Assembly: GCA_000826855.1 (NCBI GenBank)
Contig: JTLS01000005.1
Location: 1 to 61,495, forward strand
Direction: 5' to 3'
Length of the DNA: 61,495 bases
DNA from: Basidioascus undulatus
Taxonomy: Eukaryota
Part shown: positions 41,224 to 41,799 of the stretch, piece by piece
Position numbering within the stretch: position 1 is the stretch's first letter
How the letters are laid out: each line of letters begins with the position of its first letter
Position numbers and translations under genes: made by a program
Notes under the pieces: model-generated
Seen by the model: only the letters and a program-made list of their open reading frames with translations
What the model was told of the DNA's origin: nothing
Databases searched by the model: none

Positions 41224-41799
41224 CTAGTATTTCAAGATGATATAGAGTGCGTGGATGATGCCAGGCAGGTAGCCGAGCAGGGTCTGTCCAAAGTCGATTC
41301 ACGGTGTCAATTTAGGCCGACGGGGCTTCCTGGACCCGGAGTGCCCTTCACAAGTTAAGAAAGAGTAGCGCACGAGGAGGATATTAATCCAGAAGTCGGC
41401 AGCGCAGCCTGAGGTAGTGGGGGAATGGCATGAGTCTATAGGAGGCGGGCGAGGAGGGACTGCGAGGAAGGGGGCGCCTACCGCGCTCGAGGAACACGCC
41501 CAATGGGGGGAGGATGACGGCGAAGCTATTGAACGGATGAAATGCATTGTCAGCGACCGAGAGCCACCCCGCAATTGTCAACGACGTACATGATCTTCAG
41601 AATGTCCTGCACCGCGACACCGCGCGACCATGCACCCGCGTCAGTCCACCTGGATCCCCGGCCTCAATCCAACACGCCCGCTGGAAAACAAGGCTTACTC
41701 TGCGGGGAAGGGACAGAGTGGCGTACGAAGTCCATCAGCGGGCACTCTTAAAATGCAGCATATGGACCGGAAGAGGACATACGAGCAAGTGAAAGGCAT
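41224..41799 (-). CDS. PMP3: Pmp3/UPF0057 plasma-membrane proteolipid, copy A (57 aa, 6 exons including a 1-nt exon at 41699)
   Basis: Spliced product MPFTCSDILKIIFAVILPPLGVFLERGCAADFWINILLTLLGYLPGIIHALYIILKY*. Confidence 0.92.

Follow-up and report, generated by a model that had tools for sequence, protein, structure and literature searches.

Two tandem Pmp3 genes of Basidioascus undulatus with a probable one-nucleotide second exon

The window analysed here is a stretch of 61,495 nucleotides of Basidioascus undulatus DNA (assembly GCA_000826855.1, contig JTLS01000005.1, positions 1 to 61,495), and on its minus strand lie two tandem copies of a gene for Pmp3, a UPF0057 proteolipid, here called copies A and B. 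In copy A, a 17-nt exon 1 that includes the ATG (41799-41783) ends in phase 2 within the codon for Ser-6 and is followed by an 83-nt intron 1 (41782-41700; GTATGT..CCGCAG), in which the sole branch-like motif is a CTGAT at 41738-41734, 35 nt from the intron's end. The single A at 41699 is the putative exon 2 and would be the third base of the Ser-6 codon, TCA. Directly after it comes a 92-nt intron 2 (41698-41607; GTAAGC..GTGCAG; branch CTGAC at 41644-41640), positioned after CDS nt 18 in phase 0. Exon 3 (41606-41590, 17 nt) begins GACATT and is separated by a 64-nt intron 3 after CDS nt 35 (41589-41526; GTACGT..CAATAG) from the remainder of the gene, which consists of exon 4 (41525-41482, 44 nt), intron 4 (41481-41409, 73 nt), exon 5 (41408-41374, 35 nt), intron 5 (41373-41284, 90 nt) and exon 6 (41283-41224, 60 nt including the stop). 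When exons 4, 5 and 6 are translated singly, the three pieces match consecutive parts of the PF01679 (Pmp3) profile, namely positions 7-21, 22-33 and 33-49, and only the exon 6 piece exceeds the profile cut-off alone (30.6 vs 22.9 bits). The layout was rebuilt by script and then reproduced by an independent enumeration of splice models. Every coordinate and motif that the original prediction had placed at 41607..41799 was found on the minus strand.

With the A included, the six exons of copy A form a 174-nt CDS that encodes 57 amino acids plus a stop and contains zero internal stops; without it, translation ends after 8 residues. The prediction that inclusion of the A yields Ser-Asp and that skipping it yields an early stop is therefore borne out on both counts, the open 174-nt CDS also having an N-terminus that fits the family. 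The open frame of exon 3 lacks an ATG anywhere from its upstream stop to exon 3 itself, and so exon 1 must supply the start; an alternative start for copy A was rejected on the same ground. The copy A protein has no internal Met. Given the frame and the absence of any other start, it follows that exon 1 must be spliced to exon 3 with exactly one extra base. That base is flanked as CGCAG-A-GTAAGC, i.e., a canonical acceptor (YAG), the base, and a canonical donor (GTRNGY), directly abutting. The preferred base before a donor is G, and the A that precedes the intron 2 donor of copy A is not the preferred one.

Copy B was found by tblastn with the copy A model, 3 kb away on the same strand (44802-44208), and it has the same layout. 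Its 17-nt exon 1 (44802-44786) is identical to that of copy A at 17/17 positions and is followed on the minus strand by a 76-nt intron 1 (44785-44710; GTACGT..TCGCAG; branch CTGAC at 44737-44733), a putative one-nucleotide exon, G, at 44709, which would be the third base of the Ser-6 codon TCG, and a 97-nt intron 2 (44708-44612; GTAAGC..ATGTAG; branch CTGAC at 44650-44646). Exons 3 to 6 (44611-44595, 44529-44486, 44392-44358 and 44267-44208, all minus) are separated by introns 3, 4 and 5 of 65, 93 and 90 nt. The flank of the single base reads CGCAG-G-GTAAGC, and the same GTAAGC donor is used once more by intron 4 of this copy. Inclusion of the G gives a 174-nt CDS of 57 amino acids with zero internal stops, and its omission brings a stop after 8 amino acids. 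All four introns that flank the single bases (83 and 92 nt in copy A, 76 and 97 nt in copy B) are complete, each possessing a donor, a CTGAY motif and an acceptor, with the CTGAY motifs situated 24-35 nt from the 3' ends. Across both copies all ten introns are GT..AG, and the remaining five exons are open.

Just upstream of the Pmp3 copies, an open frame at 46140-47039 (minus strand) matches V-ATPase subunit a (PF01496, E 7.7e-42), and the two copies therefore neighbour a proton-pump subunit gene. The nearest Atlas cluster to this V-ATPase piece is eukaryotic, most commonly Ascomycota. Beyond the V-ATPase gene, a DOPA 4,5-dioxygenase family domain is encoded at 49656-50408 on the plus strand (PF08883, E 1.4e-16), and at 40071-40835 on the minus strand there is a weak match, below cut-off, to the HbpS-like family (PF03928). 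In the 2.4-kb spacer between the Pmp3 copies (41800-44200), each strand has open frames at 43321-44005, 116-188 aa in length; the frame that was compared with Pfam, 43397-43960 on the plus strand, had no match. The surrounding genes fit a fungal nuclear locus.

The Pmp3 family provides an external standard for the length and N-terminus of the encoded protein. A protein search whose query was an intronless ORF of 57 aa taken from metagenomic locus L002 returned 2,103 family proteins, mostly named fungal plasma membrane proteolipid 3, and a second search, with the closest protein listed in the first (P0042) as query, returned 1,093. From the matches listed in both searches, 150 family proteins were kept for counts of length and spacing. 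Exactly 57 amino acids, the length of the copy A model, were found in 123 of the 150 (from the matches listed), and the same 16-residue spacing in 133 of the 135 that possess both N-terminal motifs (again from the matches listed). The fungal N-terminus M-[PA]-F-T-x-S-D is common to the copy A model and the retrieved family proteins. The model is identical to P0042 at 52/57 positions (91%), and to 18 intronless 57-aa ORFs of metagenomic loci at 41-49 of 57 positions, in gapless alignment. The window-encoded protein itself is absent among the 120 matches listed by each of the two protein searches (L002 and P0042); given its 91% identity to P0042, it should have ranked high in the P0042 search, and since it is not listed, we saw no public annotation of it. 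When exon 4 was translated on into its intron and used as a protein query, 25 candidates came back, none scoring.

The same set of proteins bears on an alternative in which no base is trapped at all. One long intron could begin at a second GT, 4 nt downstream of the first donor (copy A, GTCCTC; copy B, GTCTTC), and extend to the far acceptor; a Tyr would then be inserted after Ser-6 and before Asp-7, lengthening the protein to 58 aa (copy A junction TGCTCGTAT-GACATT). This splice is in frame in both copies, and its products still score 121.5 and 122.1 bits against a family profile that we built from 123 retrieved proteins, every one annotated PF01679. The models with a one-nucleotide exon score 128.4 and 128.9 bits against that profile, about 7 bits higher, and the models that skip the base end after 8 aa. 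Of the 150 family proteins (from the matches listed), 0 have an additional residue separating the conserved Ser from the Asp.

The intron positions of metagenomic homologs were used to place the two introns of the window that surround the single base. Metagenome contigs were scanned with a degenerate pattern of the exon 4 motif, which gave at least 116 loci, 80 of them with full flanks, and 117 matches. For each match, all GT..AG models with no more than three introns in the 48 coding nt before the motif were enumerated, one-base exons being allowed, and were scored by a position matrix from the retrieved proteins plus a donor bonus, minus 4 per intron. Among the 117 matches listed, the first 48 coding nt carry one intron after nt 17 in 65, no intron in 20, one intron after nt 30 in 15, introns after nt 30 and nt 35 with a 5-nt exon between them in 4, and one intron after nt 13, nt 35 or nt 40 in 1 match each. 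The other 10 gave no acceptable model (L007, L026, L028, L035, L046, L065, L088, L092, L094 and L100), and most of these are cut off upstream or rearranged. Once identical sequences were merged, 95 unique modelled loci remained, and the nt-17 class accounted for 58 of these (among the matches listed). The same enumeration applied to the window places introns after nt 17, 18 and 35 in both copies. Neither this pattern nor any intron after nt 18 was encountered in the 107 modelled metagenomic matches (0/107, among the matches listed). Because the nt-17 intron is widespread in the family and the nt-18 intron is found in none of these homologs, intron 2 of the window would be a lineage-specific gain, and intron 1 is presumably the family's common nt-17 intron, and ancient. 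In the nt-17 class, the exon that follows the intron consists of one base that closes the Ser codon and then GAY. The locus with N-terminal residues nearest to those of the window copies (L108, among the matches listed) reads TGCTCAGAT contiguously. A blastn comparison of both gene regions with all of the at least 116 loci returned exon-sized matches only, and no close relative in the sample.

Intron length provides a further measure. The 58 unique orthologous nt-17 introns (5,899 nt; among the matches listed) have a median length of 99 nt, the shortest being 43 nt and the longest 170 nt. The undivided span between exons 1 and 3, 176 nt in copy A or 174 nt in copy B, is longer than all 58, the maximum being 170 nt, and the individual introns of the window (83, 92, 76 and 97 nt) are near the family median of 99 nt. 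The donor located 4 nt downstream would need a 172-nt intron, again longer than every one of the 58 orthologous introns. That donor lacks a purine at +3 and a G at +5, features that are both missing in only 1 of 80 family donors, and GTAAGC is used in 6 of 80 family introns; both counts lean toward consensus donors, which the donor scoring rewarded. A strong GTAYGT is present 4 nt upstream of it, and the downstream GT is simply positions +5/+6 of the GTANGT consensus, so that finding it in both copies adds no independent evidence.

Several of the homologs have features of their own. In four loci (L004, L060, L077 and L085) the introns after nt 30 and nt 35 leave a 5-nt micro-exon (ATCAT or CTCAT), and their nt-35 intron occupies the position of intron 3 of the window too. 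The Pmp3 family seems to be prone to very closely spaced introns. In loci L026 and L046, Pmp3 coding segments are repeated head to tail several times in degenerate form, no clean gene model emerges, and each locus may be a rearranged or decaying Pmp3 copy. Five public proteins (P0082, P0105, P0118, P0132 and P0138) have N-termini that are truncated, extended or interrupted exactly at the nt-17 intron, and gene callers often appear to mis-handle the 17-nt first exon of Pmp3.

Comparison of the two copies reveals which bases around the junction have been held constant. Copies A and B are identical at 150/174 nt of the CDS and 51/57 amino acids of the protein; 12 of the 24 differing CDS bases are in synonymous codon changes, and most of the replacements are conservative. 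In global alignment, the five intron pairs show 58-69% identity, compared with ~56-58% for shuffled sequences. Judged by their sequences, the two copies are old duplicates. Against this background, 17/19 columns are identical between the copies across the pyrimidine tract, CGCAG, N and GTAAGC. Of the two variable columns, one is a C/T within the tract and the other is the exon base, where A in copy A and G in copy B both specify Ser, TCN being fourfold degenerate. The intron 2 branch region GGACTGACG (CTGAC) is conserved as well; the CTGAC of intron 1 of copy B is not conserved at the aligned place in copy A. One long intron would leave internal signals unconstrained, and the conserved island of acceptor, single base and donor thus counts against it. 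The island is left unexplained by the donor 4 nt downstream, and we regard the use of that donor as extremely improbable.

A second way of avoiding a one-nucleotide exon is a single intron of ~175 nt, canonical at one end and displaced by one base to a non-canonical boundary at the other (GT..CA or TA..AG), so that Ser-6 would be read as TCG in copies A and B alike and the product would again have 57 aa. The protein is then identical to that of the one-nucleotide-exon model, and in copy B even the mRNA is indistinguishable from the one-nucleotide-exon product. The two readings separate at the third base of codon 6 in copy A, where a shifted boundary predicts G (TGCTCG-GACATT) and a one-nucleotide exon predicts A. 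To our knowledge, such GT..CA or TA..AG boundaries are outside the accepted U2 or U12 classes. The spliceosome would have to bypass an overlapping canonical AG or GT in favour of the non-canonical site, the CGCAG-N-GTAAGC island and the second branch site would be unexplained, and the intron would again exceed all 58 orthologous introns in length. This is the least probable of the explanations weighed here.

It is formally possible that only the outer donor and the last acceptor are used, in which case both copies would encode an 8-residue product and would be pseudogenes or non-coding. The outer donor and acceptor are both strong, one reaction would be enough, and an annotated protein corresponding to the model is not among the 120 matches listed by either protein search. 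Against such an outcome, both copies have kept the five other exons open and all ten introns GT..AG through 24 changes in the CDS; 12 of these fall in synonymous codons, and the amino-acid replacements are for the most part conservative. The internal splice signals are also kept in both copies, and decaying pseudogenes are not expected to preserve a 57-aa frame at ~128 bits. We therefore consider the loss of function of both copies to be highly improbable.

The abutting acceptor and donor were also compared with chance expectation. The loose motif YAG-N-GTRNGY occurs 12 times across the window, compared with 11.4 expected, and 46 of 100 shuffles reach 12; it is not enriched and so the motif alone proves nothing. 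The strict motif CAG-N-GTAAGC occurs 3 times, against 0.30 expected, a number reached by 0/100 shuffles, and two of the three sites are the two Pmp3 copies. In the 58 unique orthologous single introns (5,899 nt; among the matches listed), the loose motif was found in 0/58. Further acceptor-N-donor strings are present on the plus strand, CAGTGTAAGC at 37696-37705 and CAGTGTAAGT at 29918-29927; they were rejected as one-base exons, their surroundings being unlike a coding exon pair, and are probably due to chance. When we looked for structured or symmetrical introns, folding z-scores ranged from -1.8 to +1.7, which is nothing unusual, and the global identity of intron 1 with intron 2, compared to see whether intron 2 might have arisen as a duplicate of intron 1, was no better than shared splice signals predict (z = 0.3 to 3.1 over shuffles).

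The most plausible explanation is that both tandem Pmp3 copies are functional six-exon genes in which exon 2 is a single nucleotide, and we hold this to be very probable on the genomic sequence. The original prediction had proposed the A of copy A as a true, frame-essential one-nucleotide exon, and that proposal is supported by the frame, the protein length, the family alignment, the homology of intron 1, the signals shared by the paralogs and the poor performance of the rival explanations. In evolutionary terms, intron 1 would be the ancient nt-17 intron, and intron 2 would have been gained one base further on, before the copies duplicated. The paralog pair has, on this sequence comparison, inherited the arrangement from a common ancestor, and so the support from relatives counts as one origin.

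Each of the two introns, with its own donor, branch site and acceptor, would be removed by an ordinary U2-type reaction. The intron 1 acceptor and the intron 2 donor overlap the same few bases, where two spliceosomes presumably cannot sit together, and we infer that the introns would therefore be removed one after the other by intron definition. Either order of removal would give the same mRNA. If intron 2 of copy A were removed first, the acceptor would become CAGAG, with a second AG two bases on that is out of frame if used, and the first AG would be the productive one. The predicted copy A mRNA reads TGCTC-A-GACATT and would encode the standard 57-aa Pmp3 proteolipid. Direct joining of exon 1 to exon 3, with its stop after 8 residues, would probably be only an unproductive by-product, and because the early stop lies upstream of three more junctions, the skipped form would normally be a substrate for nonsense-mediated decay (NMD).

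The original prediction cited a single known precedent, a one-nucleotide exon of Arabidopsis, reportedly in the APC11 gene. That view is outdated, given the fungal cases now described (PMC12940212, PMC12230235). In Fusarium, a one-nucleotide exon of CYP621A is documented by 20 orthologs and SRA reads (Nelson and Syed 2026, PMC12940212); its authors rank it as the second such exon overall and the first fungal one. This ascomycete case resembles the Pmp3 copies in several ways: a nuclear gene has a single base directly between AG and GT, the base is frame-essential, the combined span is about twice the usual intron length, and in each case the argument uses an intronless relative as a length marker. 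The differences are that the CYP621A base is the middle base of a Gly codon, with its identity constrained, whereas the Pmp3 base is the fourfold-degenerate third base of a Ser codon and is A or G; that CYP621A is supported by 20 orthologs and reads, whereas the Pmp3 case consists of two paralogs in the genomic sequence; and that CYP621A belongs to the P450 family, a different gene family from Pmp3. In the basidiomycete Coprinopsis cinerea, long-read annotation gave 13 exons of 1 nt in 13 genes, and omitted micro-exons often create premature stops (PMC12230235). These exons are fungal, like those of the Pmp3 copies, and full-length transcripts underlie their annotation. The Arabidopsis single-nucleotide exon (Guo and Liu 2015, PMC4674806) is, like the Pmp3 one, a spliceosomal one-nucleotide exon of a nuclear protein-coding gene, although it is found in a plant and in an unrelated gene.

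Closely packed introns are also known in other forms. In the recursive splicing of animals, an acceptor and a donor are juxtaposed as a zero-length exon, and a long span is removed in two steps. Nothing is retained between the two sites there, in contrast to the one frame-essential base that the Pmp3 genes would retain. A stwintron consists of one intron nested in another so that it splits the donor, branch or acceptor element of the outer one, and the outer intron is formed only once the inner one has been excised (Fekete et al. 2017, PMC5587772). Stwintrons occur in filamentous ascomycetes, and the [D1,2]/[A2,3] type underlies one-nucleotide intron shifts (PMC5587772). Stwintrons are excised by successive U2 reactions on abutting introns through intron definition, the mode that we propose for Pmp3, and in both the [D1,2]/[A2,3] type and Pmp3 the intron positions are one nucleotide apart. 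A stwintron as defined in that source keeps no base between its introns, whereas the Pmp3 introns are complete before splicing and one base is kept. The original prediction had proposed that the Pmp3 introns are spliced sequentially by intron definition, as fungal stwintrons are, and that proposal is reasonable; under the strict definition the locus itself is no stwintron, as no splice signal is interrupted in either copy. A stwintron [A2,3] reading of copy A was rejected, since it gives an out-of-frame 33-aa product. No published link of Pmp3 to micro-exons, or of a stwintron to a proteolipid, was found in the literature searched.

The Pmp3 copies are a probable new instance of the very rare, already documented class of one-nucleotide exons. 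What is distinctive about them, on the present sequence comparison, is that any of the four bases would be synonymous at this position, that the paralogs differ there, and that the older and the younger intron can be told apart. A further proposal is that the arrangement is the gain-before-loss intermediate of a one-nucleotide intron shift and that, along the lines of the NMD switch suggested by the original prediction, the balance of inclusion and skipping tunes the output of a membrane-stress gene. We regard this combined proposal as speculative and rather unlikely. If gain before loss were true, the new intron would have been tolerated because the trapped base is a fourfold-degenerate Ser position, and later loss of either intron would leave introns that have apparently slid. 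Such a route to a one-nucleotide shift would differ from the stwintron route published in 2017 (PMC5587772).

One-nucleotide exons mark the lower limit of what the spliceosome can define, and only a handful are documented. A gene pair of the kind described here is useful because two diverged paralogs are an internal control for the bases that are constrained. A mutation at the synonymous trapped base would mark the mRNA and leave the protein unchanged, which would make it a clean reporter of splicing order. Annotation pipelines may miss or mis-start genes of this type, and the odd N-termini among public Pmp3 proteins fall at the nt-17 intron. Homology singles out the older intron, which makes the origin of the arrangement readable, and it would be a gain one base away from an existing intron.
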